Positions 1 to 46,222 of a DNA stretch of 56,156 bases are shown here, one piece after another (position 1 is the stretch's first letter; every line of letters starts with the position of its first letter). A model generated the notes under the pieces. It saw nothing but the letters and a program-made list of their open reading frames with translations. It was not told the origin of the DNA and searched no databases. Source of the DNA: Tubiluchus corallicola (taxonomy: Eukaryota; Animalia; Priapulida). The position numbers and the translations under genes were made by a program. Location of the stretch: assembly GCA_030141605.1 (NCBI GenBank), contig JAQGDQ010002419.1, forward strand, positions 1 to 56,156, given 5' to 3'.

Positions 1-299
1 ACATAACCTACACAAGATACTTTTCCCTCTTCGTTTACAAGTAGACGAAACAAAAATTTTTCTTTTTTCCTTTTTTTATATTTATAGGCAAATAAAAGTG
101 TTTCTAATTCCTGATTAATATAGTTAATAGAAGTTTTCAGTTTAGGTAATTGAGTTGGAACCGAAAGTGTTTCTTCCCCTTCTGATAGATGCTTAAGCAA
201 ATTACAATCATTACTATCATTATTAAAATAGTAGTATGTTTTTTGTGAAAAGAGGTTGATGCTATTAGATAATATGAGAATGAGCACTAATTTTTTCAT
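1..299 (-). CDS. Partial (runs off window edge) secreted hypothetical protein, probable orphan immunity protein
   Basis: Read manually: ATG at 299, MKKLVLILILSNSINLFSQKTYYYF...FRLLVNEEGKVSCVGY, open to position 1. Signal-peptide-like N-terminus; lies directly after the orphan toxin remnant. Not in the ORF track. Confidence 0.6.
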   Translation of the reverse strand, partial: MKKLVLILILSNSINLFSQKTYYYFNNDSNDCNLLKHLSEGEETLSVPTQLPKLKTSINYINQELETLLFAYKYKKRKKEKFLFRLLVNEEGKVSCVGY

Positions 300-318
300 T
301 AATTTATAGTTTTTGATT

Positions 319-632
319 TCACCATTTCCATCTATAATTTTAAGAGCATCTGCTGGGTCTATTGAGCTAAATGGACCCACAGAAATATTTATTCCATCAC
401 CAGTAGCGGAAGAGCGTCCCCACCAATCATCTTTTGTAGATGCAGAATTTACATTAACTTCTGTTCCACTAAAACCAGTCACTATATCTTGTAAATTTGC
501 TAACCCTCCAAAGAAATACCCCCGGTTTTGTAGTTTAGAATTCCCCAACTTACCGAAGTATCCTCATTCACCCTGACTGAAATTGTAAGAACCAAAGCCC
601 AAACTCATTGAAAAATCCGTTTGCCCTCCACT
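319..632 (-). pseudogene. Orphan Rhs toxin C-terminal fragment (decayed)
   Basis: Close copy of 3398-3714 in the Rhs gene (SGGQTDFSMSLGFGSYNFSQGE...DALKIIDGNG). Has TGG->TGA stop at 564-566, W->R, and H->R in the WWGHSS motif; truncated before the Cys motif. Confidence 0.85.
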
Positions 633-711
633 ATTAATATCCTAATACACCTGTAATATATAAAATATTAGTAGAAACTCTTATTATACATTGCATATTA
701 TTTTTAATTAT

Positions 712-1227
712 TTATTTGAATTTAATTTCTTTCTCACGTGAAGGAAAAATAATGAATAGACCATCATTACTAATTGTTACTACTATAGCTCCATAAAGAC
801 GCTTATCTGTTATAGCGTTAAATTTTTTTATATTTCTCTTTGAAGGATAAGTAAGTTTTGTCTTTTCCGGTAAAAGCCTATTTACAAAATCTTCATTGGG
901 ACTAATGTAAAATTCTTTGTTCTCTTCTATAATATTTAAGAAACTTCCTTGATAAATAACACCTTTCTTTATAAGGGTGTCTTGTGTTAGATATTTATCC
1001 GATTTTATATAAAAAAGATAATAAACAAAAAAAGTATCATTTGAATGTTCTACAACATAATACGTCGGAAAAAAAGAACGACACTTGACAAAATAATGAC
1101 TTGTATCCGTAAGATATATTTTGTCTATTTCTATATATCTATTGTTTTGGCTAAAACAATCGTATCCAAATAAATGTAAAAAGATAAATAACTTAATAAT
1201 TGATAATAGGTGCTGCATACATTCCAA
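712..1227 (-). CDS. Putative immunity protein, copy 1 (allele A)
   Basis: 171 aa, signal-peptide-like N-terminus, paralogue of the gene overlapping the toxin end; unique C-terminus GAIVVTISNDGLFIIFPSREKEIKFK. Confidence 0.75.
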   Translation of the reverse strand: MECMQHLLSIIKLFIFLHLFGYDCFSQNNRYIEIDKIYLTDTSHYFVKCRSFFPTYYVVEHSNDTFFVYYLFYIKSDKYLTQDTLIKKGVIYQGSFLNIIEENKEFYISPNEDFVNRLLPEKTKLTYPSKRNIKKFNAITDKRLYGAIVVTISNDGLFIIFPSREKEIKFK

Positions 1228-1359
1228 TTTGTCTTGTTAATAATTGAAGATTTAAAAATAATTACCTCCACTATTAATATCCTAATACACCTCTAATATA
1301 TAAAATATTAGTAGAAACTCTTATTATACATTGTATTATTTTTAATTATTTATTTGAAT

Positions 1360-1863
1360 TTAAATACTTTCACGTAAACAATAAATAAAGAATCGACCAT
1401 CATTACTAGTTTTTACTGCTATAGTTCCATAAAGACGCTTATCTGTCATAGCGTTAAATCTTTTTATATTTCTCTTTGAAGGATAAGTAAGTTTTGTCTT
1501 TTCCGGTAAAAAGCTATTTACAAAATCTTCATTGGGACTAATGTAAAATTCTTTGTTCTCTTCTATAATATTTAAGAAACTTCCTTGATAAATAACACCT
1601 TTCTTTATAAGGGTGTCTTGTGTTAGATATTTATCCGATTTTATATAAAAAAGATAATAAACAAAAAAAGTATCATTTGAATGTTCTACAACATAATACG
1701 TCGGAAAAAAAGAACGACACTTGACAAAATAATGACTTGTATCCGTAAGATATATTTTGTCTATTTCTATATATCTATTGTTTTGGCTAAAACAATCGTA
1801 TCCAAATAAATGTAAAAAGATAAATAACTTAATAATTGATAATAGGTGCTGCATACATTCCAA
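1360..1863 (-). CDS. Putative immunity protein, copy 2 (A/B chimera, C-terminal 2-nt deletion)
   Basis: Same as copy 3 except for a 2-nt deletion near 1370 that changes REKVFKFK to RESI*. Confidence 0.72.
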   Translation of the reverse strand: MECMQHLLSIIKLFIFLHLFGYDCFSQNNRYIEIDKIYLTDTSHYFVKCRSFFPTYYVVEHSNDTFFVYYLFYIKSDKYLTQDTLIKKGVIYQGSFLNIIEENKEFYISPNEDFVNSFLPEKTKLTYPSKRNIKRFNAMTDKRLYGTIAVKTSNDGRFFIYCLRESI

Positions 1864-1987
1864 TTTGTCTTGTTAATAATTGAAGATTTAAAAATAATTA
1901 CCTCCACTATTAATATCCTAATACACCTCTAATATATAAAATATTAGTAGAAACTCTTATTATACATTGCATATTATTTTTAATTAT

Positions 1988-2503
1988 TTATTTGAATTTA
2001 AATACTTTCTCACGTAAACAATAAATAAAGAATCGACCATCATTACTAGTTTTTACTGCTATAGTTCCATAAAGACGCTTATCTGTCATAGCGTTAAATC
2101 TTTTTATATTTCTCTTTGAAGGATAAGTAAGTTTTGTCTTTTCCGGTAAAAAGCTATTTACAAAATCTTCATTGGGACTAATGTAAAATTCTTTGTTCTC
2201 TTCTATAATATTTAAGAAACTTCCTTGATAAATAACACCTTTCTTTATAAGGGTGTCTTGTGTTAGATATTTATCCGATTTTATATAAAAAAGATAATAA
2301 ACAAAAAAAGTATCATTTGAATGTTCTACAACATAATACGTCGGAAAAAAAGAACGACACTTGACAAAATAATGACTTGTATCCGTAAGATATATTTTGT
2401 CTATTTCTATATATCTATTGTTTTGGCTAAAACAATCGTATCCAAATAAATGTAAAAAGATAAATAACTTAATAATTGATAATAGGTGCTGCATACATTC
2501 CAA
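1988..2503 (-). CDS. Putative immunity protein, copy 3 (A/B chimera)
   Basis: N-terminal variable patches match copy 1; C-terminal patches match copy 4. Confidence 0.75.
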   Translation of the reverse strand: MECMQHLLSIIKLFIFLHLFGYDCFSQNNRYIEIDKIYLTDTSHYFVKCRSFFPTYYVVEHSNDTFFVYYLFYIKSDKYLTQDTLIKKGVIYQGSFLNIIEENKEFYISPNEDFVNSFLPEKTKLTYPSKRNIKRFNAMTDKRLYGTIAVKTSNDGRFFIYCLREKVFKFK

Positions 2504-2627
2504 TTTGTCTTGTTAATAATTGAAGATTTAAAAATAATTACCTCCACTATTAATATCCTAATACACCTCTAATATATAAAATATTAGTAGAAACTCTTAT
2601 TATACATTGCATATTATTTTTAATTAT

Positions 2628-3143
2628 TTATTTGAATTTAAATACTTTCTGACGTAAACAATAAATAAAGAATCGACCATCATTACTAGTTTTTACTGCT
2701 ATAGTTCCATAAAGACGCTTATCTGTCATAGCGTTAAATCTTTTTATATTTCTCTTTGAAGGATAAGTAAGTTTTGTCTTTTCCGGTAAAAAGCTATTTA
2801 CAAAATCTTCATTAGGACTAATGTAAAATTCTTTGTTCTCTTCTATAATATTTAAGAAACTTCCTTGATAAATAACACCTTTCTTTATAAGGGTGTCTTG
2901 TGTTAGATATTTATCCCAAAATAAATTATAAAAATAATAAACAAAAAAAGTATCATTTGAATGTTCTACAACATAATACCTTGGAAAAAGCATAGGACAC
3001 TTGACAAAATAATGACTTGTATCCGTAAGATATATTTTGTCTATTTCTATATATCTATTGTTTTGGCTAAAACAATCGTATCCAAATAAATGTAAAAAGA
3101 TAAATAACTTAATAATTGATAATAGGTGCTGCATACATTCCAA
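2628..3143 (-). CDS. Putative cognate immunity protein, copy 4 (allele B)
   Basis: Overlaps the 3' end of the Rhs toxin gene, the usual toxin-immunity coupling; unique patches CPMLFPRY and YFYNLFWDK. True start may be the ATG at 3134. Confidence 0.8.
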   Translation of the reverse strand: MECMQHLLSIIKLFIFLHLFGYDCFSQNNRYIEIDKIYLTDTSHYFVKCPMLFPRYYVVEHSNDTFFVYYFYNLFWDKYLTQDTLIKKGVIYQGSFLNIIEENKEFYISPNEDFVNSFLPEKTKLTYPSKRNIKRFNAMTDKRLYGTIAVKTSNDGRFFIYCLRQKVFKFK

Positions 3144-6100
3144 TTTGTCTTGTTAATAATTGAAGGTTTAAAATATGGGGATGAAGATTAAGGGGAAGTG
3201 TTGGTACTCCTACTGACCATAATGACCTTGAAACGTGATTAACACAACTAAATCCCAGTGCATTCCATTTTAATTCACCAACACCCCATAATCCATCTCC
3301 TAATTGTATATTATTAGTCATTTTCTGCATCATTTTAGAATTGACGTTTTGTAATTTTATCACCCAAGTTCCATCATTATTTGGAAAGTTAGGATAATCA
3401 CCATTTCCATCTATAATTTTAAGAGCATCTGATGGGCTCTCTATTGGGGAAGCTGGACCCACAGAAATATTTATTCCATCACCAGTAGCGGAAGAGTGTC
3501 CCCACCAATCATCTTCTGTAGATTCAGAATTTACATTAACTTCTGTTCCACTAAAACCAGTCACCATATCTTGTAAATTTGTTAACCCTCCAAAGAAATA
3601 CCCCCAGTTTTGTAGTTTAGAATTCCCCGACTTACCGAAGTATCCCCATTCACCCTGACTGAAATTGTAAGAACCAAAGCCCAAACTCATTGAAAAATCC
3701 GTTTGCCCTCCACTCAACAAATGATTACCTCCACTATTTATGCTAGAACCACCCGCAATAGCCAAAGTATTCGCAAAAGGAATGCCACTACCTGCTATAG
3801 CTGCTCCTGTCACCGCACTTGCTCCTCCTATTATATACCCAAACATTTCCCAACCTTTAGCATCATTAGCCTCTCCTATCTTGTAGCCACTATATCCTCC
3901 TATTATTGCTCCTACAACGGCTGCTGCTAAAAATATCCACTCCCCATCAGGATCTACAAACATCATAGGGCTATTGCCCATAGCTTGGTAAGGTGAGTGC
4001 ATCTGCAAAGCAGGATCTACTGCAAACCACCTTCCCAAATTAGCATCGTACTGTCGTGCGTGAAAATCGTGCAAGTTAATATTAAAATACTCCAAATGCT
4101 CCTTGCCCGTGTAGAGGTATTGGCTTTTTACATTATCAGGTAGTTCATTTCTACTTAGTTTCTCTATCGTTTGTCCATAAGGGTAGTAAGCCGTTTCTTG
4201 TAGCACCTCGCCCTTGTTGTCAGCAACTACTCGTGTATGCCCCAAGTGGTCGGTGAGTAACACTGCCTTTGTGTCCTCTTCCTCACCCTTCAAGGTATAG
4301 CCTAAAGGGTTACTCACAAGTACAAGCGTATCATTAATATACAGATACGCACCTTGATAATCGTATTTTAGCAAGAGGCTATCGTTTTTGTTAAATATCT
4401 CACGTCTTAAAAGTGAGCCATCCGCTATGTAGGTGTTTACTATCTTTCCTTTGCCTACTACCTCCATTGTATCAGGTAGGTTGATGTCGTTGTAGCTAAT
4501 ACGTAGTCCCTTGTAGCTATCCTCCACCAAGTTACCCAACTCATCATAAGTATAAGTGCCTAGCACTTCTTCGGGTGTTTGGTCTTTTTCATCGTGCGTT
4601 CTGCGTAGGTTCTCTTGTATGGCAAGGGTGTCTTTTAGGTCTATAATGCCGTCACCATCCGCATCCATATAGCTAAACTGTGGGGTACTGGTAATAGTTG
4701 TGTAGGGCTTCCACTCCGTGCCTTGCTCATCTTCGTCCCTTGGGGTGGCTGTGCTTCCATAGTGCAAGCCCAATGGCAATATGTCGGCTGGCTCTACTAA
4801 GCCGCTATTGTCCATATCACCCGGATATACTGTTATCTTTTGCAGGCTTTTACGGTGTAGAGTGGTGAGTTGGTTGCCCGTGTATTCATACTCCAAATCA
4901 TCCAAGTCGCCATACACTTCATTACGTAGATGTCCCTTGCGGTGTAGGGTAGTAATGTTCCCGTGTTTGTCGTAAGAGTAAGCTGTGTTGTAAGTGTTCT
5001 CCTCTTTTGTGTCTTGGTAGTAGATAGCTCTTGTCAGTTGGTTAGCATCGTCATAAGAGAAGGCATAGCCTGATAGGGGTGTGTTTTTGGTCTTCCACTC
5101 CATAGCTGTAATGTTGCCGTTGTACATAGGGGTGTTGCTCATATACTCGTGAGGCTCGTCATACTCTATCCTTTCGTAAAAAAGCTGTTCGTTTTTGTCG
5201 TTGTTAGTTTCTATTTGGGTAAGGCGGTAGTGGAAGTCGTAATGGTAGTTTGTTCTTATTTGTCCTTCATACAGTCGTTCATAGCTTTTGTTGCCTTTTT
5301 CATCGTAGCGGTAATAGGCTATTTCATAGGTGTTTTTGTCTCCCTGCTCTTGGTAGTGGATGGATTTCAACATGTCGTTGTGGTAGTATTGGTAATCCTT
5401 ACGTGCAAAGTGTTGCTTGTCAAAGTCTAAGAAGTTTTTGTAGGTAAATAGTTGTCTTACTCTGCCATCGAAATGGTAGTTGGTAAATACTGCGTCTATT
5501 CCGCCTATGTTGTTGGAGGAGAAGGATTGTACTACTCTGTTGTATTTGTCGTAGTATATTACGCTTTCTATCCATTGGTCGGTGCCAAGTATGCGGGTTC
5601 GTGTGCCTGTTACTTGTGTCTTTACGTTGTGATAGGGCTTGCCAAGGGGTTCGTAGGGTGGTGCTGACTGTGCAAAGGGGAAGTCGTAGTCGTCGTAGTG
5701 GGTTTCTGATAGGGGTATCTTTTTTCCGTCTTTTTTTATGCCTGTGGCTATTACGCGGCTGTAGCGGTCGTAGTCTATGTAGGAGGTGTTGCCTTCTGTG
5801 TCTTCTTCTTCTATCAGTCTGTCTAAGTGGTCGTAGCTAAGGTGTATGGTACCTGCTTGTGGTATGTGTTTGCGGATAAGGCGTCCTTTTTTGTCGTGGA
5901 TGAATTGATAGACGTAATGGTGATTGTTGATATCTCCTTTGGATAGTGGGGGGAGTATGGCGGTAAGGTTGCCATAGTGAAAGTCGTAGTAGTAGAGTGT
6001 GGTTAGGGTTTCTTTGTTTATCTGGCTTTCTCTTTTGAATAGTTGACCTTTGTATGAGGTGTATGTGGTGTGTTGTATGCCTTGAGGGTCGGTGGTACTG

Positions 6101-6663
6101 ACTATGCTTATGTAGCCGGGGGGGTATTTTTTGTCTTCGTATTTTTCGGTGAATGCGTCATATTCTTTGTGTAGGAAGATGTCGGTGTTGGCGTAGCGTT
6201 CAATTTTGGTAGTGTGGTTTGTGCCTATTTGGTATTTCTGTCCAAAGCCACCTTGTTCTATTACTTGACCGCGTGGGTTGAATATGCTTTGTGCGCTGGG
6301 TATGTCTGTGTGGGCTTGGTTTAGTATGTTTTCCCAGTTGTGTAGGTAGTCGCCTTTGATGTTGAGTTGCATTGGCATATAGCTAAAGGGTTGTCTGCCT
6401 GCTATGTCGTATTTATGAAATTCTATGTGGTCGTTTTGGTAGATGGAGGCGTTCAGGTGGTTGGTTTGTAGGGGGCGGTCGGCTCCATCGGTGTAGATAA
6501 TGGTGGTTGAGGCTGCTGCTGGGTTGGTGGTATTGCTTAGCTCATAGGCACTCATCCCTGATACTTTTGCTCGTTTTATGCGCACGTAGTTTTGGTCTCG
6601 GCTCTGCGGGTACAGAACGCTGCACAAGTGCAGAAAGGCCAAGAGTAAAGCAATGGGTCTCAT
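3109..6663 (-). CDS. Rhs-repeat core toxin (DUF6443-like N-terminus, YD repeats, dockerin-like insert, His/Cys toxin tip)
   Basis: Signal peptide; YxDGxxRPLQ N-terminal motif; YNGNI motif; core motifs LTDHLGHTRVV, YYPYG, YLYTGKE, ARQYDANLGRWFAVDP and PYQAMGNSPMMFVDPDG cleavage signature; Gly/Ala-rich hydrophobic segment followed by a variable C-terminus. Confidence 0.93.
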   Translation of the reverse strand: MRPIALLLAFLHLCSVLYPQSRDQNYVRIKRAKVSGMSAYELSNTTNPAAASTTIIYTDGADRPLQTNHLNASIYQNDHIEFHKYDIAGRQPFSYMPMQLNIKGDYLHNWENILNQAHTDIPSAQSIFNPRGQVIEQGGFGQKYQIGTNHTTKIERYANTDIFLHKEYDAFTEKYEDKKYPPGYISIVSTTDPQGIQHTTYTSYKGQLFKRESQINKETLTTLYYYDFHYGNLTAILPPLSKGDINNHHYVYQFIHDKKGRLIRKHIPQAGTIHLSYDHLDRLIEEEDTEGNTSYIDYDRYSRVIATGIKKDGKKIPLSETHYDDYDFPFAQSAPPYEPLGKPYHNVKTQVTGTRTRILGTDQWIESVIYYDKYNRVVQSFSSNNIGGIDAVFTNYHFDGRVRQLFTYKNFLDFDKQHFARKDYQYYHNDMLKSIHYQEQGDKNTYEIAYYRYDEKGNKSYERLYEGQIRTNYHYDFHYRLTQIETNNDKNEQLFYERIEYDEPHEYMSNTPMYNGNITAMEWKTKNTPLSGYAFSYDDANQLTRAIYYQDTKEENTYNTAYSYDKHGNITTLHRKGHLRNEVYGDLDDLEYEYTGNQLTTLHRKSLQKITVYPGDMDNSGLVEPADILPLGLHYGSTATPRDEDEQGTEWKPYTTITSTPQFSYMDADGDGIIDLKDTLAIQENLRRTHDEKDQTPEEVLGTYTYDELGNLVEDSYKGLRISYNDINLPDTMEVVGKGKIVNTYIADGSLLRREIFNKNDSLLLKYDYQGAYLYINDTLVLVSNPLGYTLKGEEEDTKAVLLTDHLGHTRVVADNKGEVLQETAYYPYGQTIEKLSRNELPDNVKSQYLYTGKEHLEYFNINLHDFHARQYDANLGRWFAVDPALQMHSPYQAMGNSPMMFVDPDGEWIFLAAAVVGAIIGGYSGYKIGEANDAKGWEMFGYIIGGASAVTGAAIAGSGIPFANTLAIAGGSSINSGGNHLLSGGQTDFSMSLGFGSYNFSQGEWGYFGKSGNSKLQNWGYFFGGLTNLQDMVTGFSGTEVNVNSESTEDDWWGHSSATGDGINISVGPASPIESPSDALKIIDGNGDYPNFPNNDGTWVIKLQNVNSKMMQKMTNNIQLGDGLWGVGELKWNALGFSCVNHVSRSLWSVGVPTLPLNLHPHILNLQLLTRQIGMYAAPIINY
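4593..4836 (-). other. Dockerin-like domain inserted in the Rhs core
   Basis: VYPGDMDNSGLVEPADILPLGLHYG...YMDADGDGIIDLKDTLAIQENL: two DxDxxGxxxxxD Ca-binding loops each followed by a helix, between the conserved GNQL and YTYDxxGN core motifs. Confidence 0.75.
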
Positions 6664-6679
6664 CTCTTTTATTGTTTGT

Positions 6680-8947
6680 TTATTTAACTCTCATTATAAA
6701 GGCTAATACGTAGTAGGGAGGTATAATATCAAAATTATCAGTAGTTACTTTGTCTGCTGGCGATTTTAACCCGTCCTCTCCTCCATTGCTTACTCTACCA
6801 CTAAAAGAACTATTCGGGTGGGTGTGTCTATCTTCATTATTCTCAGATGTAGTAGTAGCATCTCTGGTTTCATGAACTCCTCTATCAGAGCTCCTGCTAC
6901 CTCCTGTCTTTCTATTAGATGGAGTGGATTCATAAGTATGTGTATGACTCCCTGAAGAGGTTATATGTATACTTGCGTCATTGCCTCTTACAGAATGATG
7001 ATGTTTAGGAATATGATTCTTAGATAATCTAAATGTAGCTGTAGAGCTACTGCTGCCTCCTTCTGCATTCACATTGTTATAATCACCACTGGCAGCATCA
7101 TACGCCACAATAAACCTACCACTTAAGTTGGGGGTCGTTATGAGTGAACCATTAATATCCGTGTCTGTTCTACCATCACACAAAGCCCACCCATCAGGTA
7201 TAGTATTAGGGTCTCCGCTCCACATTATAATGCCTCCTATGGGTATGGTGCCGTAGCCTACAAATTGTCCTTGTGTTTCAATATTGTCTTCTGCTATTAT
7301 TTTGCCTTCTGTGGCAATATCATTGGCAGTTTGTATGCTTTCTACAAAAAGGGTATCTACTTCTACATTGGAAGATATTACTCCATCTACCCTTACTACT
7401 TCACTTACTATTAATGTATCAGCAATAATGCTACTTGTTTCTAAGTTTTCTACTTTCACATAGTTTTGTTCAAAGTCGCCCTCTATGAGTGTGTTGGTTC
7501 CACTGCCTATCATTAGTTTGTTGCTTTCGTTATTTAGGTTCTGCCCTACTTTGTTACCTATTACTATGTTGTTGTAGCCATTGTTCCCTTGTGCTGCTTT
7601 GTCTCCTATGTATATATTGCTACCACCTGTTGTATTGCTTTTGCCTGCTTCGTTGCCAATAAACACATTGCCACTAGCCGACAAGCTATTTAGCCCTGCA
7701 CGGTAGCCTATAGCTATGTTGTCATTGTTGGAAGTAGCATCTGGGTTTATACCTTGCAGTGCCTCTGTGCCAATAACTACATTTCGCTCTCCACTGCTTT
7801 TTTCGGCTGCTTTGCTACCTATCACCACACTATAATTGTTTGCTCCTTCTCGACTAGCGTATTTTCCTATGACTACTGCACCTGTGCTGTTTTTTGCTTT
7901 GGATGCTTTACTACCTACAATTACATTATCAGAGGATAGTGTATATTTCCCTGCCTCGTCGCCTACAATTACATTGTGTGAGCCAGCGGAATTTAATTGC
8001 CCTGCCTCTGTACCTATCATTACATTAGAGGTAGAGGCTTGTGTGGTGTTTTGTCCTGCTCTTTTACCTACAAAGGTGTTGCGTTCGCCTTGTTCTCCAC
8101 TGTTAATCTTTTCTGAGCCTATCAATACGTTGGTAGTATCTATCTCTATACTGCCTGCTATCATATCTTCTAAGGCTTGATTGTTGAGACGGTAAGGCTC
8201 GTTCCACGCTCCATAAGTAGTATCGCCATTTATATCTATTTCTATAAGGCGCAACTTTGCCCATAGGTCGCCTTCCTTTCGTTCTAAGGTCCAATTAGAA
8301 GTAGCCGCACTATCAGGAGCATACATCTTTTCAACTGAGCAAGGGTCTATGGTTACCTCCAATTTACCATCCACTATTTGCAGTGTATTACCCAATACTA
8401 CGCCTCCTCTGGTGCTATGGCTAGCAATAGGTAGTTCATAATAGTTGGCATTGTTTTCTACCGAAAGTAGTTTGGCCAACAAACTATCAGCAAAGTTATT
8501 GTCCGAGTATGTAGCACGATGCTCTATGCCTAGTAGCTTTTGATAGAGGCTATCTATAAAGTTATGCTCAGTGTAGTTCAGACTGTCTAACTTGATTTTA
8601 AGAACGTAAGTAAAATTTTCTTCGGAGTACTTAATACTGTCTAACTTTTCTTTGTGAGAAGTTGTGAAGTTGTGGTCGGTTTGTGAGGTGGCTCTTAGGT
8701 AGATAACACCTTCGCCTTGTTGCCCTTGATAGATTTCTAATCCATCCTCGCCTTCTGCTTTTATCTCATAATTGTAGGTAGCATTGATAAGGTCTTTAAA
8801 ATCCTGTCCATTGGGTTTACTACCATCTTGAAACTTGGAGTGTAATTCACTGGGGGTTTTTCTCTCTATTTGAGAATAAGCAGTGGTGTTAAGGAACACA
8901 AAAGCAATAGCAACTGCAAAAAATTTCACTGTATTTTTCATTATCAA
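6680..8947 (-). CDS. Secreted tail-fibre-like / trimeric adhesin protein with phage tail-collar-like C-terminus
   Basis: Signal peptide; N-terminal ELHSKFQDGSKPNGQDFKDLIN; four NF..KL repeats ending ANYYELPIASHSTRGGV; about 14 YadA-head-like NxxIGxxAG repeats; collar motif IPIGGIIMWSG..IPDGWALCDG..TPNLSGRFIV and terminal PPYYVLAFIMRV. Confidence 0.8.
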   Translation of the reverse strand: MIMKNTVKFFAVAIAFVFLNTTAYSQIERKTPSELHSKFQDGSKPNGQDFKDLINATYNYEIKAEGEDGLEIYQGQQGEGVIYLRATSQTDHNFTTSHKEKLDSIKYSEENFTYVLKIKLDSLNYTEHNFIDSLYQKLLGIEHRATYSDNNFADSLLAKLLSVENNANYYELPIASHSTRGGVVLGNTLQIVDGKLEVTIDPCSVEKMYAPDSAATSNWTLERKEGDLWAKLRLIEIDINGDTTYGAWNEPYRLNNQALEDMIAGSIEIDTTNVLIGSEKINSGEQGERNTFVGKRAGQNTTQASTSNVMIGTEAGQLNSAGSHNVIVGDEAGKYTLSSDNVIVGSKASKAKNSTGAVVIGKYASREGANNYSVVIGSKAAEKSSGERNVVIGTEALQGINPDATSNNDNIAIGYRAGLNSLSASGNVFIGNEAGKSNTTGGSNIYIGDKAAQGNNGYNNIVIGNKVGQNLNNESNKLMIGSGTNTLIEGDFEQNYVKVENLETSSIIADTLIVSEVVRVDGVISSNVEVDTLFVESIQTANDIATEGKIIAEDNIETQGQFVGYGTIPIGGIIMWSGDPNTIPDGWALCDGRTDTDINGSLITTPNLSGRFIVAYDAASGDYNNVNAEGGSSSSTATFRLSKNHIPKHHHSVRGNDASIHITSSGSHTHTYESTPSNRKTGGSRSSDRGVHETRDATTTSENNEDRHTHPNSSFSGRVSNGGEDGLKSPADKVTTDNFDIIPPYYVLAFIMRVK

Positions 8948-8986
8948 ATTCTGTTTTATTGGTGTATATTTATATTTTTTTCATTT

Positions 8987-11900
8987 TCAATTCTCTGTTA
9001 CATATCTTATATGAAAAGTAGTGGCAGTATCGTTTCTAATATACATTTGTCCTATTCCTAACTCTTCTATGTCCAAAGGGTCGTAGGAGGCTTTGTAGTT
9101 ATACTGATATTGTTCCAGAGCGTCTTCATCTTCGTTTCCTATGTTCGAAAGTCTACCAAAATCGTCATAACCATATTTTATAGTCTGCTCTTGTGAAGAA
9201 ACTTCTTGTTGCAGTTGTAGTAGGTTGGTGTATGCATAATTAGAAACATACTTACCTGCATCTACAGAGTGTGTTTTGGGTAGATTACTCGAGGTGTAAG
9301 AATAGGAAATAGGCACGGCATCTTTACCAGTATATTTCAGTATGTTGCCTTTGTTGTCGTATTGGTTGAAGGTGGTTTGTAACTCATAATTATCTGCAAG
9401 GGTATTGTAAGTTTCTATGCTTTCTACAATGTAGTCAGGGTCTTCATTGCTTCCTAATACATAGTTGATTTTTTGTCCTGATAGGAGTTTCCCGTTTTTT
9501 CTTATCTCTTGCTGTACTGGGGCAATAATATGCTTGTCCTCAAAGTATTGTTTTATAGGCTGATTGCTCTGATGCACATAAGTAATAGAAGTTTCTGTGG
9601 TCTCTACATTATCACTGGCAATTACTTTTACAGGTAGGTTTTTGTATTTACTGTATTTTTCATATTCATAGGTGGTAGTGGTAGTGATAGGCTGCCTTGC
9701 ACTTTCGGCATAATCTTCGCGAATAGTCCCTTCCAAAGTTTTAGTAACTGCAGCTATATCATAGGTGCTATGACGTAAAAGATTATCATTTTTATCTATC
9801 TGTACATTGTAGCCTCCAACAGAGTTGCTCCATTTTAAACTATAATTGTTAGAAGTTTTATTGAGTAAGTTATCTTTATTGTCATAAGTTTCTTGTTGAT
9901 AGAGATAAGTCCTATACACATCTCTGTCTGTAATGGTAGAAAAAAGCAGGTAGTAAGAACTAGAAGGATCTTGGCCTGCTATTACATCAGGTTTATTGTC
10001 TTCATCTTTGGCTGTTTTAAAGTAAGAAATAGTTTTGCCTTGTTCTTTGTTTGTCTGCATTACCTTGCCAAAACCTACTATACCCCCGCCTGTGGCTAAC
10101 TGTTCGCCTCCGCCCTTAGGATAAAGTAAATAATGATAATAGTCCCAAAAACGTCCAACCTCATACTTTCTATTTCTGTTGAAAGGTATAATACCTTCCT
10201 CATAGTTATAAGTTATTTCTTCCATTACCTCTCCTTTTTCGTCATCCGTAGCTTTTATATTTTTTATAAAACAACCATATTCACTAGTATAGTAGTCGAA
10301 GGTTTTGTGCATTCCTGTAGGGTAGGTAATGGAGGAAAGCAAACCATTCTCTATATTGTTAAGCGAAGGGGCATAATTATATTCTTCGTACTCGTTTATA
10401 CCCTCGAATTTTACTCTTAACATTTCCTTTAACGATGATGAATATTCTATATTCCGTTCTTCATTTTTTTCATTGCTGTCTATATCTAGCTCACTGGGGT
10501 ATGTAAAGTTGTAAAAAGTAGATTTAGGACTTGTAAAATCTACATAGTAACCATAAAAATTCTGTTTGTAAGAAAGTCTATAAGGTAGTTTACTAGGGTT
10601 AATGTAATTAAATTTAAAAGGATTGATATTATCTCCATAGATGTCTTTCTCCTCTATTTCTGTAAGGAACATCCTTTGTGTAGTACCTGCTTGTTCTATA
10701 AAGAAACTACCACTGTGCCATGCATTTGTTTTAAAACGAAATGCAGGCGAGGAGGTAGTAACAGAATTATGATAATTATAAGTAAATGTATAGCTTTTAA
10801 TAAAATCATCATCTTTCGTTTTTATACGTATTTCTCTAAGAAAACTACCTACCTCATCTATCATATCTTTTCTGTTTTCTACTGTAAAGAATTCTACTTT
10901 GTGGTTGCCTCCTTCTACCTCTTGCAACATAGGGGTATGGGCTGTAACCAAACTTTTAGCAATTCCTATTTCATTACGAGGAACTGGGGACTCATATCTG
11001 TAAAACTTATTATCCTCTATTTTGGGATAAGAATTCTGAATACAAACACCTGACAGCCTACTGCCTTGATAATACCGACTTGTTTGTTTTTTATAAGAAA
11101 AGGTTACTTTATCATTAAAAGCAGGTTGTATTATCTCTATTAAATGCCAAGAGGACCTATAACTATACGATTGACTACTATTGATTACACGTTTTTCCTG
11201 CAAATCCAAAGAATAAGCGGGAATTTTCTTGATTACTATCCCCAGAAAATTTCTCTTCCAAATTTCCTCAAACTTTGAAGTATAACGTACAATTTCACTT
11301 GTATTTTCTATTTCCATCTCTTCTATGGCTTCTTCTTCATAGCCAAATCTGTAAATAGTGCCATCTTCGGCAGTAATAGTAAAGCCATTAATGGTTGAAG
11401 AAGAAGCATCCATCTCTATTTTCAGGTTGTTATCGTTGGCAAGAATATTAATTCTGTTAGAAGCGGCTCTTCTGCTAATAGTGAATTTACCGTTTAAGTT
11501 GCCACAAGAAAAATAAAATATATCAGGGTGGAGATCGTTATCTTTCATTTCTTCGACTGATGCCCAATTATCCCAATAGCCTATCTTTTCTTTTGTTTCA
11601 TTTTTACTATCTACTACACCGTCATTATTATCTTCAATAATAGATTTTACTTGGGTTGTTTTCTCATCGGGGTAGCCTTTTACTACACGAGTAATCACTC
11701 CGCTTGCTTGTAAGTTCCATCCCATACCTACCCAAGAAGCTAGGTCATCTACTCTTACTCCGTTGGAATGATACACCAAGCTAATGGGCACGGATAGGTG
11801 GGTACTTTTCAGGGTGTACAAAGGAATGCCTACATTAATAGCTCCTGTGTAAAGGCTAGAGGCGGTAGAGGCAGAACGTATCAGCCCTGCTACTGTGGGT

Positions 11901-12160
11901 GAGGGTACAGTAACCAAACTACTACTACCAGACAAGGCTCCGAACTCGTCACTGCTCATTGAAGTAGGAACACCTTTATGTAAGGATTTTAACATCAAAT
12001 GACTGGTAGTATCTTCTTCTGCTGCTGTATCTTCCTGTTCAGCTGGAAGATAGGGCTGGGCAGAAGTCAAGCTAAAAGAGAAAAGAAAAAAGAAAAAAAC
12101 ACTCTTTCCTCTCCCATAGATACAAAATAAAGACAAAAATATAAATGCAAGTGTTTTCAT
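8987..12160 (-). CDS. YD-repeat protein, N-terminal half of a split Rhs/TcB-like shell
   Basis: Signal peptide; PSPTVAGL..SLYTGAINVGIPLY..PISLVYHSNGVRV..ASWVGMGWNL..GVITRVVKGYPDE; PDIFYF; LSSITYPTG; terminal YGYDDFGRL. Confidence 0.85.
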   Translation of the reverse strand: MKTLAFIFLSLFCIYGRGKSVFFFFLFSFSLTSAQPYLPAEQEDTAAEEDTTSHLMLKSLHKGVPTSMSSDEFGALSGSSSLVTVPSPTVAGLIRSASTASSLYTGAINVGIPLYTLKSTHLSVPISLVYHSNGVRVDDLASWVGMGWNLQASGVITRVVKGYPDEKTTQVKSIIEDNNDGVVDSKNETKEKIGYWDNWASVEEMKDNDLHPDIFYFSCGNLNGKFTISRRAASNRINILANDNNLKIEMDASSSTINGFTITAEDGTIYRFGYEEEAIEEMEIENTSEIVRYTSKFEEIWKRNFLGIVIKKIPAYSLDLQEKRVINSSQSYSYRSSWHLIEIIQPAFNDKVTFSYKKQTSRYYQGSRLSGVCIQNSYPKIEDNKFYRYESPVPRNEIGIAKSLVTAHTPMLQEVEGGNHKVEFFTVENRKDMIDEVGSFLREIRIKTKDDDFIKSYTFTYNYHNSVTTSSPAFRFKTNAWHSGSFFIEQAGTTQRMFLTEIEEKDIYGDNINPFKFNYINPSKLPYRLSYKQNFYGYYVDFTSPKSTFYNFTYPSELDIDSNEKNEERNIEYSSSLKEMLRVKFEGINEYEEYNYAPSLNNIENGLLSSITYPTGMHKTFDYYTSEYGCFIKNIKATDDEKGEVMEEITYNYEEGIIPFNRNRKYEVGRFWDYYHYLLYPKGGGEQLATGGGIVGFGKVMQTNKEQGKTISYFKTAKDEDNKPDVIAGQDPSSSYYLLFSTITDRDVYRTYLYQQETYDNKDNLLNKTSNNYSLKWSNSVGGYNVQIDKNDNLLRHSTYDIAAVTKTLEGTIREDYAESARQPITTTTTYEYEKYSKYKNLPVKVIASDNVETTETSITYVHQSNQPIKQYFEDKHIIAPVQQEIRKNGKLLSGQKINYVLGSNEDPDYIVESIETYNTLADNYELQTTFNQYDNKGNILKYTGKDAVPISYSYTSSNLPKTHSVDAGKYVSNYAYTNLLQLQQEVSSQEQTIKYGYDDFGRLSNIGNEDEDALEQYQYNYKASYDPLDIEELGIGQMYIRNDTATTFHIRYVTEN

Positions 12161-12173
12161 TTGTTAAAACCTC

Positions 12174-12948
12174 TTAGTTTAAGATAATTTTCTTACTGAC
12201 AATAAAATCATTATAGACCGTTTGTATCAAATAAATACCTTTGGGAAGAAAAGATAAATCAAAAGTAGCTATATCTTTTTTGGGTACGGTGGTTCGCACC
12301 ACAGACCCCTCCTCTCATTGCTCTAACTTCTACTATCTCTTTTTCTACCCCGTATTCATATTTGATATTTACAATACCATTTGTAGGGTTAGGATAAAGT
12401 ATAAATTGATATAGCTCAGTGTTTTTCGAAAGGTGTTTCAAAGAATATTCGCCTATGTAAATAGTATCGGAAGTAGAAAGAAGAGGAATGGCTTCTCCTT
12501 TGTGATTGTTTGCCATATAAGGATGAGCAGACACAGAGATAAAGTCCTTGGTTAAACCCTCTTTTATCTTTACAAAAAGAGAGAGTACATTTTCTTTACT
12601 GTCTAAAAAAAAGTTCTCATTCAAACCTGTAACAGCATAACGCAGCAGCCCTTCACTTTGATTTTGTTGATATAGGTCAATATAATCCTTGCCTCGCTCT
12701 CCAAAAGTGCTGCCTGTGGAAAGTGCAATAGAATTAGTGTCCAAGTCCTGTGGGTTATAACGAATGTCAAAAGCTATACCATAAAGAAGTTCTATATTAT
12801 CTTGAGGGTAGAAATTAAAAACCACCACCTCATCCAAACGCTCACGAGATAAAACAGGAGTAGGAGTTTCTACTTTTAGCAGCTCTTGCGAGAAAACAGA
12901 ACAATTTAATAGAAAGAAAGATATTAAATTTAAGCAAAATAATCTCAT
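12174..12948 (-). CDS. Cohesin-like protein with T9SS type A C-terminal sorting domain (frameshift at ~12306-12315)
   Basis: Start MRLFCLNLISFFLLNCSVFSQ at 12948. Beta-sandwich with LYGIAFDIRYNPQ..GLLRYAVT..ANNHKGEAIPL, then LYPNPTNGIVNI. The shifted frame continues GSVVRTTVPKKDIATFDLSFLPKGIYLIQ..KKIILN* to 12174. The ORF track gives 12259..13032. Confidence 0.72.
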
Positions 12949-13001
12949 AAGACTAAAAGATTTTAAGAAATTAGGTGTAAAATATCTTAACTTAAAAAAC
13001 A

Positions 13002-13033
13002 CAAGTTTACATAAAAAAACTCTTTTGTACAAA
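13002..13033 (-). promoter_or_regulatory. Putative Bacteroidota sigma-A promoter of the Rhs operon
   Basis: Minus strand TTTG (13033-13030), 20 nt, TAAACTTG (13009-13002); one mismatch to TAnnTTTG; supports the 12948 start. Confidence 0.45.
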
Positions 13034-13282
13034 AAAATATATTAAGAATTAGCAATATATTCTAAGTAGTTTAAAACCATCCTTAAATTCAGTTACTGCT
13101 AAGTACAATACAAGTTTTAGAAACTTTCATCTTTTAGTTTTTGGCAATAAAAATAGGCAATGAATGAAAAATTAAATATTAGTATACCATTACCTTATTT
13201 TGTTATAAAGACTATCTTTGTAAAACTTAAATATTTAACTCCTATTTAACCTTTATTTATTAGTCAACACAAACAAGCTAAT

Positions 13283-14326
13283 ATGAACAAAAAAGTAAGT
13301 ATTAAAGATATTGAAAAAGAAACAGGTATTTCAAAAGGCACAATCCATAGAGTATTACACAAAACAGGCTATGTAGCAGACGGAACTAGAAAAAAGGTAC
13401 TACAAGCAGTAAAAAAATTAAACTACAAACCAAACTTACTTGCAAGCACATTAGCTTATAATAAAAAACGAACTTTTGCTACTTTAATTCCAGACCCTGC
13501 AGAAATTTCTTTTTGGAAAGATGTAGACAAAGGCTGTAAAAAAGCCATCAAAGAACTTTCTTTCTTTAATATAGATGTACAACGTTTCTATTTTAGCTTA
13601 AAAGACAATGACTTCGAAGAGCAAAGCCAAAACATTTTATCCATAAAAGACGTATCAGGAGTTGTATTTGTCCCTACCTTTAAAGAAGCATCTTACAAGT
13701 TCTCTTCACAATTGGAACGCCAAAAGGTTCCATTTATAAATATAAATGTGCACGACAGAAACCTCCCCTATATTGCCTATCTCGGACAAGATGCTTATGG
13801 AATAGGACAACAAGGAGCTTTTTTAATAAACTCTGTTGTTCCCGAAGGAAAAACTTTAATAACCAACTTATATTCACAAAATAAACACTCTATCTATAGA
13901 GAACGAAGAATAAAAGGATTCTCTGATTTTTATGGAAAAATAGGTAGAAAAAACGATATTATACTATTTGAAGCCTCTACCAACAATGAAAAAAACTTAG
14001 TAAAATCATTAAAAGAAGTACTTGATAAACATACGATTAGCTCTATATTTATTAATAACTCGCGAGGATATCTAATCGGTAATTTTCTGAAACAACACAA
14101 TTATAAAGGCATATACTTTGTTGGAATGGATTTAATAAAAGAAAACATCTCATTGATGAAAGAAGACTATATTGATTTTCTTATCTCACAAAAGCCTGAA
14201 ACACAAGGAGAACAAGGACTAATGCTTTTGTTTGATGTGCTAATAAAAAAACAAGCTATTGAAAAAATACAATATCTCCCCATAGATTTAATAAACAGAT
14301 ACAACTTAGAATATTATCACATATAA
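13283..14326 (+). CDS. LacI-family transcriptional regulator
   Basis: N-terminal HTH VSIKDIEKETGISKGTIHRVLH..YKPNLLASTLA plus a sugar-binding domain. Confidence 0.93.
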   Translation: MNKKVSIKDIEKETGISKGTIHRVLHKTGYVADGTRKKVLQAVKKLNYKPNLLASTLAYNKKRTFATLIPDPAEISFWKDVDKGCKKAIKELSFFNIDVQRFYFSLKDNDFEEQSQNILSIKDVSGVVFVPTFKEASYKFSSQLERQKVPFININVHDRNLPYIAYLGQDAYGIGQQGAFLINSVVPEGKTLITNLYSQNKHSIYRERRIKGFSDFYGKIGRKNDIILFEASTNNEKNLVKSLKEVLDKHTISSIFINNSRGYLIGNFLKQHNYKGIYFVGMDLIKENISLMKEDYIDFLISQKPETQGEQGLMLLFDVLIKKQAIEKIQYLPIDLINRYNLEYYHI

Positions 14327-43936: not shown

Positions 43937-46222
43937 TTATAAGAAAAGTATTTTAGTTACAGCTTTTTCTTGTCCATCGTGGTCTACCACATAGATAAGG
44001 TATATTCCAGAAGTTATCCTTTGTCCACTTTGCTTGCACCCATTCCACGTAGCCTGTCCACCAAGCGAAACAGTCTCATAAACAAGGTTGCCATTAATAT
44101 TTGTAATTTTCACATTGGTGTTTTCCTTCAAGCCAGTTATAGTTATTAGCCCTTCATAGTTTTCCCTTACGGGGTTAGGAAAAGCAAATATATCGTTATA
44201 ACTAGATTTCGGCTCAATGGCTTCTCCTCTGTATGAGGTTATACCATATGCTGTGGCTATGAATATTTCCCCAGTATTAGAATCTATAGCAATATCTTTA
44301 ATATCATTAGAGGGCAATGGGCTATTTTGTATATTAAAGTGTTCTAACTGTTTTTTTCCATCACCTGACATAAGGTATACGCCTGAATTTCTCGTGCCAA
44401 AACACTTTCTATCAGCACCATCTATAGCTATGGAGCTTACTATCTCCATTTCCAAAAGATAGCCAAATGTTCCATCATCATTTGACACAGATACCTTTTC
44501 TGCATAAGTGCCTCCTAAGGCTAACATCTCATAGGGGTGAAAATAGGTTAGCACTCCATTTTCTGTACCAAGCCATAAAATACCCTTTTTGTCCTGTTGC
44601 AAAGAGTAGACCTTGTTAGTCAAAACACCTCCCCCCTCTCCTCTTACTTTAGTCCTAATATATTCATCATCCGATTCTGTTTGCAAGGTAGCCCTATCAT
44701 TAAATATAAATAATTCGTCCCCATCATTTAATACTATCCATTTATCGTCATTGGCAGTATTTATCATTCTCCCAAAACTATCATTATTGTTCAAAATATT
44801 ATAATTATAGGCATACCATTGCTTGTTCGGAGTTTTTATTCCTATAGGAGTTGCACTATTAGAGTTTGTTACCCACAAATTGCCGTCCGTATCATAGGTC
44901 ATACTACCTACCTGCAACATTCCATTGATAGATGGCTCTAAGGGGGTATTAGTTTCATCCCACCTTGTTTTTGTCTGGTTATTTTGCAACTCTAAAATAC
45001 TGGTTTTGGCTGAAATATATAAATCATCGTTTTGGGGCAAAATATCTACTATATTACTTATTTCTGGATATTGGTAATCAGTCCATTGTTCGTTTTCAAA
45101 AATCGAAAATATATTGTTATTATTCGATATTACATATATCCTATCATCATAATATTTCAAATTTGCAGTACTATGCCGAGCAGGTGCATTGGGCTGTACA
45201 AATTGGGGCGTATTATCAAGCACTGATAGCTTTATCAATCCCTGCACACTATCAGCAATCCAAACAAACTCAGTATCATTCTGCTTGGCATCGACAGGTA
45301 CTCCCTCGTAGGTACTCTTATAGATAACCCTATCATTAGCATCTATCAGCAACACTATATCATCCGCACAAACAATAAGATTTTCCACACCCGTTTCTAT
45401 GGCTTTTACACTATTATATATAGTAGTTGAAGTAGTCCAAGTGTTGTTTTGATAAATATAAACAGTATCCTTATCACCTACTACTCCATTAGCGTACACT
45501 TTATTATTAAAACAGGTAACTATATTAAAAGTATCATTGGGATTTGGTATTGCAATATCTTTTTTCCACTCGTTGAAATCAGCCAAATTAGAATTGTTTA
45601 TACTACCCACATAAATACCTTCGCTGGTAGCTGCATAAATATTTTTATCAACAGAGCAATAAGCAATATCAAATAGTTGTAGAGCATTGTCTTCTTGGGT
45701 AAAATAATAGGTATCCTTTACCTCGCTCCTTTCCAAATCTAACAAAACTATTCCAAAATTAAAAGCCACATATACCACTCCTTCTATATATACAACCGTT
45801 TGAGGTTTTACTTCTTTTATATTACTTAATACAATATCAGGAATATTATCTATTGTTTTATCTGTAACAACATCTATATTACCATTCTCATACACTACTA
45901 TCAAAACATCCGAAGAGGCAATGTATTTTACCACCTCTATTTTATGCTCTGTTAAACCCTCTACTTTTGATAGAGTATTAATAGTATTATCAACAACATT
46001 GTAGTACAGCAAACCTCCTTCTGCCAAATAATATATTTTATTTCTGCCCACTTCTATTTGCTTCCCCTCATCATAATTAAAATGATTTCGCCATTCCTTC
46101 ACTCCTATTTGCGAAAAAACAATAGCTGACAACAACAGTAATCCTACAAGTAATAAGCTCCTTTTCACTTCAATTAGTGTTTCATATATAAATAACATAG
46201 GGGATATATCCTCCCTCTTCAC
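43937..46222 (-). CDS. porZ: T9SS component PorZ-like beta-propeller protein with CTD
   Basis: WRNHFNY, LSKVEGL, YENGNID, IAIDGADRK.FGT, NSPLPSN, AFPNPVRENYEG, SLGGQATWNG..SGIY. Confidence 0.85.
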   Translation of the reverse strand: MKREDISPMLFIYETLIEVKRSLLLVGLLLLSAIVFSQIGVKEWRNHFNYDEGKQIEVGRNKIYYLAEGGLLYYNVVDNTINTLSKVEGLTEHKIEVVKYIASSDVLIVVYENGNIDVVTDKTIDNIPDIVLSNIKEVKPQTVVYIEGVVYVAFNFGIVLLDLERSEVKDTYYFTQEDNALQLFDIAYCSVDKNIYAATSEGIYVGSINNSNLADFNEWKKDIAIPNPNDTFNIVTCFNNKVYANGVVGDKDTVYIYQNNTWTTSTTIYNSVKAIETGVENLIVCADDIVLLIDANDRVIYKSTYEGVPVDAKQNDTEFVWIADSVQGLIKLSVLDNTPQFVQPNAPARHSTANLKYYDDRIYVISNNNNIFSIFENEQWTDYQYPEISNIVDILPQNDDLYISAKTSILELQNNQTKTRWDETNTPLEPSINGMLQVGSMTYDTDGNLWVTNSNSATPIGIKTPNKQWYAYNYNILNNNDSFGRMINTANDDKWIVLNDGDELFIFNDRATLQTESDDEYIRTKVRGEGGGVLTNKVYSLQQDKKGILWLGTENGVLTYFHPYEMLALGGTYAEKVSVSNDDGTFGYLLEMEIVSSIAIDGADRKCFGTRNSGVYLMSGDGKKQLEHFNIQNSPLPSNDIKDIAIDSNTGEIFIATAYGITSYRGEAIEPKSSYNDIFAFPNPVRENYEGLITITGLKENTNVKITNINGNLVYETVSLGGQATWNGCKQSGQRITSGIYLIYVVDHDGQEKAVTKILFL

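Follow-up and report, generated by a model that had tools for sequence, protein, structure and literature searches.

We analyzed a 56,156-nt contig (JAQGDQ010002419.1) from the Tubiluchus corallicola assembly GCA_030141605.1, referred to below as the window, and hold with moderate confidence that four adjacent genes on its minus strand, g1 to g4, encode a polymorphic Rhs toxin in which a dockerin-bearing shell would receive the export-and-anchor signal of the type IX secretion system (T9SS) in trans from a cohesin protein, with a fibre likely aiming the assembly. This reading is carried by the modeled cohesin fold of g1, a dockerin-family insert in g4, a predicted interface between the two, and the joint occurrence of the insert and the cohesin gene in other genomes. 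The locus comprises the following features.

g1: 12174..12948, minus strand; ATG at 12948; signal-like N terminus, cohesin domain at about amino acids (aa) 21 to 170, and T9SS type A sorting domain; frameshifted.
g2: 8987..12160, minus strand; 1057 aa; N-terminal (YD) half of the Rhs shell, with a signal-like N terminus.
g3: 6680..8947, minus strand; 755 aa; ATG at 8941; tail-fibre-like protein.
g4: 3109..6663, minus strand; 1184 aa; DUF6443 Rhs core with a dockerin insert and a C-terminal toxin-like tip.
Dockerin-family insert: 4594..4836, minus strand; g4 aa 610-690; lies in a variable loop of the Rhs repeats and has two Asp-rich loop-helix units.
Tip domain: 3112..3600, minus strand; predicted permuted NlpC/P60 (papain-like) fold, with His1056 before Cys1140.
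Putative immunity array: 712..3143, minus strand; four tandem near-identical copies with a period of 636-640 nt.
Orphan remnant: 1..640, minus strand; partial g4 tip region with an in-frame stop, then a different immunity-like open reading frame (ORF).

The four genes are tightly co-oriented in the order that the original prediction had described; the gaps between them are 13, 39 and 16 nt, and an immunity-like gene overlaps the 3' end of g4. Each of the four opens with a basic and then hydrophobic stretch (11-residue hydropathy, 2.4-3.0). These signal-like N termini, here and in the related loci, are a crude hydropathy judgement with no signal-peptide predictor behind them, and to that extent they agree with the signal peptides claimed earlier. 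In profile scans, g1 alone matched a T9SS sorting domain, and g2, g3 and g4 had no C-terminal sorting domain match in Pfam or NCBIfam. The other landmarks of the original prediction also held: no VgrG or PAAR match was obtained among the 26 window proteins scanned (five further ORFs of at least 100 aa lay outside the scan), and porZ is present at 43937-46222 (NF052228, 548 bits versus a cutoff of 260). No PAAR or VgrG gene was seen beside the homologous loci in ORF lists read by eye. The marks of a type VI secretion system (T6SS) Rhs effector, namely, PAAR or a linked VgrG and no Sec signal, were thus found neither in the window nor in the homologous loci read, and an identity as T6SS cargo was rejected on the basis of the absent PAAR/VgrG match in the window scan and the signal-like N termini.

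By sequence alone, g1 gave a weak Pfam Cohesin match (E = 0.03-0.05), and a plain sequence search of the PDB returned no identity. An AlphaFold2 (AF2) model built on a 50-row alignment had a predicted local distance difference test score (pLDDT) of 91. Every row shown by Foldseek for this model was a cohesin (best E = 6.8e-8), and in the VIA structure search of 48,161 chains, cohesins occupied ranks 1-19 (best Z, 15.6; root mean square deviation [rmsd], 2.2; 137 aligned positions). In the model, then, g1 folds as a cohesin, as had been proposed from its sequence. A generic immunoglobulin domain was considered and rejected, given that the first 19 VIA ranks all went to cohesins. Cohesin-like rows were part of the alignment used for the model; the independent check is a profile containing no Rhs-linked row, which is described below. 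An ESM Atlas cohesin match (0.85-0.86) fell below the 0.9 mark and served as a lead only, and a profile search of longer proteins with the cohesin alignment added merely three members of the same family.

The g1 frame shifts at a G run near 12310 (12307-12311), and the sorting-domain tail continues in the frame 12314..12174. The Por_Secre_tail profile is split accordingly: one frame matches its first 20-34 positions, and another frame matches positions 31-74 of 75 (E = 0.022 and 0.0013); both pieces score under the curated cutoff because the frameshift divides the domain. The g1 relatives P0201-P0203 carry PF18962. A contig from the public run X1, possibly the same sample as the window, covers 11704-13357 and differs by two gaps but no substitutions; one of the gaps is a G-run indel whose size leaves g1 with a single open frame. 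The frameshift is therefore likely to be an assembly error or a slipping homopolymer. The length of this run differs between the window and the public contig, and the relatives' translated tails have no such run; it could be an error or a phase-variable export switch.

The g4 insert matches proteins annotated as Dockerin_1. Among 50 aligned members of the insert family, 45 match Dockerin_1 at E <= 0.01; the window copy alone gives E = 0.017, below the Pfam cutoff. Its loops, GDMDNSG and DADGDG, form two calcium-loop/helix units. A plain sequence comparison with the PDB returned calmodulin-like EF hands only, and a chance EF hand was rejected as an explanation, since the site, spacing and family are identical in all carriers. 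Eight of 150 listed Rhs relatives have the insert at the same site, and a word-based search of the insert region found it in 0 of 35 Rhs proteins. The dockerin-bearing Rhs proteins P0044, P0053, P0133, P0140 and P0180 lie in gene contexts outside the loci read. By its family membership, the insert is a dockerin, as the original prediction had it.

A complex prediction for the window cohesin and dockerin with two calcium ions scored 0.84, versus 0.56 for the best control. In a calibration run without ligands, 51 of 78 pairs with solved complexes and 2 of 108 mismatched ones passed the same mark; custom alignments went unused. The prediction runs agree in at least 98% of contacts. The partner pLDDT is 91, and both dockerin helices contact one face of the cohesin, including the nearly invariant Gly of that family. 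The g1 cohesin is thus predicted to bind the g4 dockerin, with an interface above controls in the complex check that had been suggested for this pair.

We then compared genomes for the joint occurrence of the parts. Among 97 Marinifilum-family genomes, six contain a dockerin-bearing Rhs (G001, G003, G004, G008, G009 and G091) and six contain the cohesin gene (G003, G004, G008, G009, G068 and G091); the fibre core is found in the same six genomes as the cohesin gene. The cohesin gene is therefore present in 5 of the 6 genomes with a dockerin-bearing Rhs versus 1 of the 91 others (Fisher p = 5.5e-7, computed on related and hence nonindependent genomes of one family). That one genome, G068, has the same gene order as the rest until its contig ends inside the YD half. 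In five genomes, the order is cohesin-sorting domain gene, fibre gene, fused YD-Rhs gene with dockerin, and a small gene. A metagenome scan with the fibre segment returned three loci, each with the cohesin gene directly upstream; L112 continues into a dockerin-bearing Rhs, and L113 and L114 end earlier. Besides the window, the cohesin gene directly precedes the fibre gene in 9/9 loci, and a dockerin-bearing Rhs is present in 6/6 loci that reach the insert site. By comparison, none of nine insert-free Rhs loci, chosen as controls from the 97-genome Rhs search and read over 14-20 kb each, has a cohesin or fibre homologue.

Other searches were less sensitive. A junction DNA pattern recovered 5 genome loci (Marinifilum or Bacteroidales records) and none in metagenome or viral contigs; three genomes that a profile later recovered had escaped this pattern. 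Scanning genome contigs with a single protein gave no match. Identity between the window and the Marinifilaceae loci is 16-19% for the cohesin, 31-38% for the dockerin and 44-50% for the fibre segment, and the gene order differs, with the fibre gene between the shell halves in the window and before the fused Rhs gene in the relatives. With partners so distant and the order changed, the linkage is therefore old. As judged from gene content, the locus is a conserved set in Bacteroidota in which the insert and the cohesin gene travel together, and the co-occurrence of dockerin-bearing Rhs cores with cohesin and fibre genes, which the original prediction had proposed as a check, extends across genomes. 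Fold and family were recovered, an interface was predicted, and the insert and g1 were not independently distributed; on each of these three points the prediction had been open to refutation.

The dockerin family of the insert was found in 49 of 401 sampled genomes of the phylum (65 matches). We read 61 of these dockerin loci, one of which is the G004 Rhs and 60 of which encode non-Rhs proteins. In 43 of the 60, the dockerin is followed in the same chain by 225-265 residues that comprise a domain of ~160 aa and a tail, and 30 of the 43 have a tail that opens, as sorting-type tails do, with [YA]PNP. A profile built from the domains in between (A7), which includes no Rhs-linked row, matched cohesins in 17 of its 18 PDB matches (best E = 6e-7); 11 of the 43 domains match Pfam Cohesin individually. 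Among 297 sequences, this profile ranked g1 first (E = 7.7e-14) and all six Marinifilaceae partners next (E = 1e-6 to 5e-6), and the profile-profile probability was 95.8%. The cohesin profile also picked up an unrelated ORF in L091, at E = 1e-4. A quick tree of the cohesins contained two label changes, compatible with one origin of the stand-alone cohesins or with more than one. These comparisons suggest that the system represents a cargo-dockerin-cohesin-sorting-domain tail split in two. A rationale for the split would be that the Rhs core cannot hold a C-terminal sorting domain of its own, because its C terminus is the exchangeable tip.

The unsplit tail consists of a V[YW]PGD dockerin, a cohesin-like domain and a sorting-type tail, and it is found on diverse proteins (L027-L055 and L057-L087); in five of those loci, a short segment stands in place of the cohesin. 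A viral scan with the dockerin alignment returned one unrelated locus. A large viral contig (L056:4375-8430) encodes a 1351-aa protein with a weak match to the dockerin family.

The shell itself was assigned from g2 and g4. In g4, DUF6443 matches at aa 42-153 (Pfam E = 3.6e-12) and the Rhs core at aa 826-907 (TIGR03696 E = 9.5e-13, above the cutoff), with a DPDG motif at aa 904 (nt 3954..3943); g4 therefore shows YD/RHS repeats that end in an Rhs core with the DPxG motif. The RHS repeat match of g2 is weak (E = 0.003), and a PDB sequence search with g2 gave no identity. The fused YD+Rhs proteins P0043 and P0044, which rank as the two best among 150 listed Rhs relatives, contain g2 as their N-terminal half (E = 6e-52 and 3e-41, respectively) and g4 as their C-terminal half, and g2 also matches the N-terminal half of Rhs in the Marinifilaceae loci. 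The earlier view of g2 and g4 as split halves of one shell is borne out by these single-chain relatives.

Contig depth was 36-41 over g4 versus 10.8 over g2-g3 in X1 and 15-20 versus 5-8 in X2, with many variant sites in both; the runs represent one sample, and depth is not copy number. Orphan cassettes in G008 include a second dockerin-bearing core. The 2- to 4-fold depth of g4 relative to g2-g3, together with this second core, hints at several cores per adaptor. At the g3/g4 junction (window 6657-6666), the X1 and X2 contigs deviate as if the start of g4 came from another copy or strain.

The last 163 residues of g4 gave an AF2 model with a pLDDT of 91.7. VIA placed TseH first (Z, 9.1; rmsd, 3.9; 129 aligned positions; 9% identity), followed by RID (Z, 7.8), a Euglena complex subunit, YiiX (Z, 5.7) and further papain-like proteins. 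Eight of the nine best rows are the papain-like proteins TseH, RID, YiiX, a Bacillus cysteine peptidase, a viral 2A protein, a deSUMOylase, PLAAT4 and CLN5. Across 29 rows, Cys1140 is invariant and His1056 is at least 90% conserved; the His precedes the Cys. An ESM Atlas match to a TseH-like tip (0.88) was below the 0.9 mark and served as a lead only. The tip is thus predicted to be a permuted NlpC/P60 enzyme. Permuted NlpC/P60 effectors are described as lipid targeting in PMC12994826, where Tox-Act1 is reported to have phospholipase activity and TseH to show it in one of two assays. As a predicted enzyme of this kind, the tip would likely attack the envelope of neighbouring bacteria, most likely their membrane lipids.

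The tips are variable: the last 150 aa of 10 dockerin-bearing Rhs proteins showed no pairwise match at E <= 0.001, and the tip in the window recurs on other Rhs stems. The four putative immunity copies are identical at 483-514 of ~516 positions in pairwise comparisons, with differences clustered in two segments. Each copy has a signal-like N terminus and is preceded by the last codons of g4; the third is shortened by an indel. The immunity gene had no PHROGs match, and the two copies scanned against Pfam gave no match. Loose contig ends at 718 and 2634 suggest another copy elsewhere. The orphan remnant is 94.6% identical to g4 over 317 nt, and its immunity-like ORF begins at ATG 299 and is open at the window end. 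In the window, the product of the gene after Rhs has a hydrophobic stretch at its N terminus or a membrane stretch, and the same holds in 5/5 loci where this gene was identified, a count that leaves out G001, whose ORF after Rhs is an orphan tip. By position and variation only, then, the loci show a small downstream gene that changes with the tip, along with orphan cassettes.

g3 is composed of a signal-like N terminus, a conserved N-terminal segment, a Gly/Asn-rich repeat, and a C-terminal collar and tip domain. It matches tail, tail spike and short tail fibre families in PHROGs (E = 1e-15 to 5e-4), Pfam Collar (E = 1.6e-4), and the PDB entries 6ov6 (E = 2e-6) and 9nxk (E = 5e-5); neither a sorting domain nor a dockerin was found in it. 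Relatives at E <= 3.5e-60, like the conserved N-terminal segment, were found only in loci of this system. The middle repeat is common in the order (65/401 genomes, in a search that scored at most 4 candidates per genome and matched mainly this repeat). The phage tail, spike and collar matches and the constant neighbour support the tail-fibre likeness put forward in the original prediction; its further proposal, recognition of the target by this protein, is one that we infer. The first motif after the signal, F..G..P...F.D (window 8947-8800), also opens a gene in a phage-like region of G009 (L025:1619-3991); it resembles a motif of fibre-attachment modules, and it could be a shell-binding part. 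At L010:7613-7990, L024:1766-2143 and L112:12279-13592, small genes unrelated to the system separate the fibre gene from the Rhs gene, and those in L112 look like transposases.

Taken together, these data suggest the following sequence of events. All parts would enter the periplasm via Sec, consistent with their signal-like N termini. Shell formation and self-cleavage at DPDG are general properties of Rhs proteins, and g2 and g4 would likely close into one shell around the tip. The dockerin loop is predicted to bind the g1 cohesin with calcium, in line with the folds and the co-occurrence observed. The g1 sorting domain would then direct the complex to the T9SS and keep it anchored at the surface. 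Because the fibre has neither a sorting domain nor a dockerin, it would travel on the shell and make contact with target cells. The tip would act against the envelope of neighbouring bacteria, with kin protected by an exported immunity protein. Of the original proposal that the cohesin protein tethers or carries the shell through its dockerin, the cohesin, the dockerin and the predicted interface stand; carriage by the T9SS is a step that we infer.

Several observations weigh against this account. The fold of the tip rests on one aligner (Z, 9.1), and Foldseek gave no match at E <= 0.001. One control complex reached 0.56, and cohesin-dockerin complexes have already been solved, so the pass may reflect likeness rather than binding of the window copy. 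The window copy of g1 carries a frameshift, and the L112 cohesin ORF measures only 136 aa. G001 has fragments only. In G002, a complete dockerin-bearing Rhs is accompanied by neither a fibre nor a cohesin gene over the 1.9 kb to the contig end; neither gene was found in the rest of the G002 assembly, although an empty answer says little in a search that has no known positive. A porZ match was obtained in G003, G004 and G091 but in none of G008, G009 and G068, where only 9 of 36-37 candidates were scored. Likewise, 8 of the 9 control genomes whose Rhs loci are free of the insert yielded no porZ, and there every candidate was scored. Plain pairs of YD and DUF6443 proteins with signal-like N termini thus occur where porZ was not found; in general, shells of this plain kind seem able to do without the T9SS, and they seem either to leave without it or not to leave in the usual way. 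Finally, the T9SS pore would have to pass a shell of ~250 kDa.

The last points bear most directly on an arrangement in which the shell exits by the plain YD+Rhs route, and the T9SS exports the cohesin alone, which captures the shell at the surface for contact-dependent use. The pairs without insert, cohesin or fibre in the 8 of 9 control genomes that lack a porZ match accord with it, as does the G002 Rhs with no cohesin found, and cellulosomes attach by cohesin-dockerin pairing after export. Against capture at the surface, both partners have signal-like N termini and would meet first in the periplasm, and both domains stand in one chain before a sorting tail in 43/60 loci, as fits an export tail acting in trans; we regard surface capture as rather unlikely. 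Alternatively, g1 in the window could be truly broken and the locus a remnant kept mainly for its amplified immunity genes, as the frameshift, the fourfold immunity repeat, the orphan remnant and the 1-2 nt indels inside g2-g4 in contigs of runs X2 and X3 would allow. The X1 contig, however, spans g1 without the shift, g2, g3 and g4 are open over 755-1184 codons, and the family is intact in five genomes; this explanation touches the window copy only, and we give it a very slim chance.

Two further alternatives concern the target and the fibre. An assembly aimed at eukaryotic cells or surfaces, as an adhesin- or predation-type particle whose downstream genes are not immunity genes, would fit the best solved sequence relatives of g4, which are mosquito salivary SGS proteins (E = 2e-21), and the match of the tip fold to the RID effector domain (Z, 7.8). 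However, the SGS match covers the common Rhs core only, TseH ranks first for the tip, and the pairing of each tip with a different small exported or membrane protein, together with the orphan cassettes, is the pattern of polymorphic toxins used by bacteria against bacteria, all of which makes a eukaryotic target quite improbable. The fibre, for its part, could be an independent surface protein or a decoy inherited with the cassette, leaving the cohesin, dockerin and Rhs as the unit: its contact with the shell is conjectural, its gene shifts between a place before the fused Rhs and one between the halves, unrelated small genes follow it in G003, G068 and L112, and its middle repeat is common in the order. 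The restriction of its conserved N-terminal segment to these loci, the cohesin gene directly upstream in 9/9 of them and the absence of an export tail on the fibre itself argue against this, and we think it, too, improbable, by a shade more than a eukaryotic target. We therefore retain export and anchoring in trans, with a likely aiming fibre, as the favored reading.

In the remainder of the window, positions 13283-43834 contain a polysaccharide-use cluster, with a LacI regulator, two pairs that look SusC/SusD-like, two alginate-lyase-family genes, GH88, GH2, CBM96 and uxuA. No link between this cluster and the toxin locus was seen.

If the favored reading is true, a protein without a sorting domain is tied to the T9SS by a noncovalent adaptor. 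Relatives occur in named Marinifilum and Labilibaculum records, so the idea is testable. It would also offer a testable role for the widespread and apparently unstudied dockerin-cohesin-sorting-domain tail of Bacteroidota proteins and a possible export route for the large DUF6443 Rhs family. More tentatively, the locus may define a new class of polymorphic-toxin delivery, a surface nanomachine in which a cohesin adaptor brings a tail-less, toxin-loaded shell through the T9SS by piggyback, a fibre of phage origin chooses the target and one adaptor-fibre-shell set serves several interchangeable dockerin-bearing cores; we would not yet call this probable. If true, it would constitute direct evidence that the T9SS is used in bacterial warfare and that its signal can be supplied in trans via cohesin and dockerin.

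Among known systems, the Tc toxin pair TcB-TcC likewise forms a two-chain shell whose second chain has an Rhs core and a variable tip. At the sequence level, no TcA-like gene match was found in the window and no SpvB/TcdB family match in g2. Plain Bacteroidota YD + DUF6443 pairs have the same two shell halves and layout; unlike the present locus, they have no insert and no cohesin or fibre homologue in 9/9 loci, and they often occur where porZ was not found. One such pair (L091:12004-19998) follows a series of small genes, nine or ten in number, whose products bear signals and end alike in a coiled-coil-like C terminus; they may be an aiming part of a different sort, and one of them is the ORF that the cohesin profile picked up. 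Elsewhere, a plain DUF6443 Rhs adjoins a contractile-tail-like cluster (L094:2997-15338), whose genes we take, by their look, to encode sheath, tube and baseplate.

Cohesin-dockerin pairs, including the Clostridium perfringens glycoside-hydrolase cohesins (PDB 2jh2, 2vo8 and 2w1n), share the cohesin fold, the two loop-helix units and, as predicted here, an interface with both helices on one sheet face. In contrast to those pairs, the locus has one cohesin per protein, no scaffoldin and no carbohydrate-active enzyme, and its dockerin has a longer middle segment and lies inside an Rhs repeat region. A single cohesin with a dockerin on an Rhs protein is not the composition of a cellulosome. The available text of PMC13483458 mentions cohesin or dockerin domains in PT-TG toxin architectures, and neither Rhs nor T9SS nor a partner gene is named there.

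Rhs polymorphic toxins, both T6SS linked and secreted, resemble the locus in their YD/RHS repeats, DPxG core, variable tip, immunity-like gene and orphan cassettes; in PMC3482391, Zhang et al. (2012) list RHS and tail-fibre repeats among the features of several export classes. The locus differs from these toxins in having no PAAR/VgrG match, signal-like N termini, a dockerin placed within the repeats, a gene dedicated to the cohesin and sorting domain, and a fibre encoded separately. Neither "dockerin" nor "Por secretion" nor "PorSS" appears in the first 300,000 characters of PMC3482391. The g4 tip is like the permuted NlpC/P60 effectors TseH and Tox-Act1 (PMC12994826) in its predicted fold and in the order of His before Cys; unlike TseH, the tip (9% identical) is carried on an Rhs protein and not as T6SS cargo. 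In the literature searched, excluding supplements and subscription journals, no dockerin-bearing Rhs, cohesin adaptor for Rhs or gene set of this kind was described, a negative limited by the supplements of PMC3482391 and PMC7073777, which may list such loci. DUF6443 was found in no paper of that literature. Apparently, then, the locus is an Rhs polymorphic toxin variant with an assembly and export logic for which we found no published description.

The closest parallel in setting is provided by the TANFOR toxins of Bacteroidetes. No such family was among the NCBIfam matches of the window proteins at E <= 0.1, in a library that presumably contains a TANFOR model. Like the proteins of the locus, TANFOR toxins are signal-peptide-bearing polymorphic toxins beside T9SS substrates, and their authors, in the part of PMC7073777 consulted, raise export by the T9SS and a function in competition as possibilities. 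That the T9SS takes part in interbacterial competition was proposed there from gene neighbourhoods, with no physical link to a T9SS substrate identified in that portion and no model system; here, the predicted cohesin-dockerin pair is a candidate for the physical link between toxin and T9SS.

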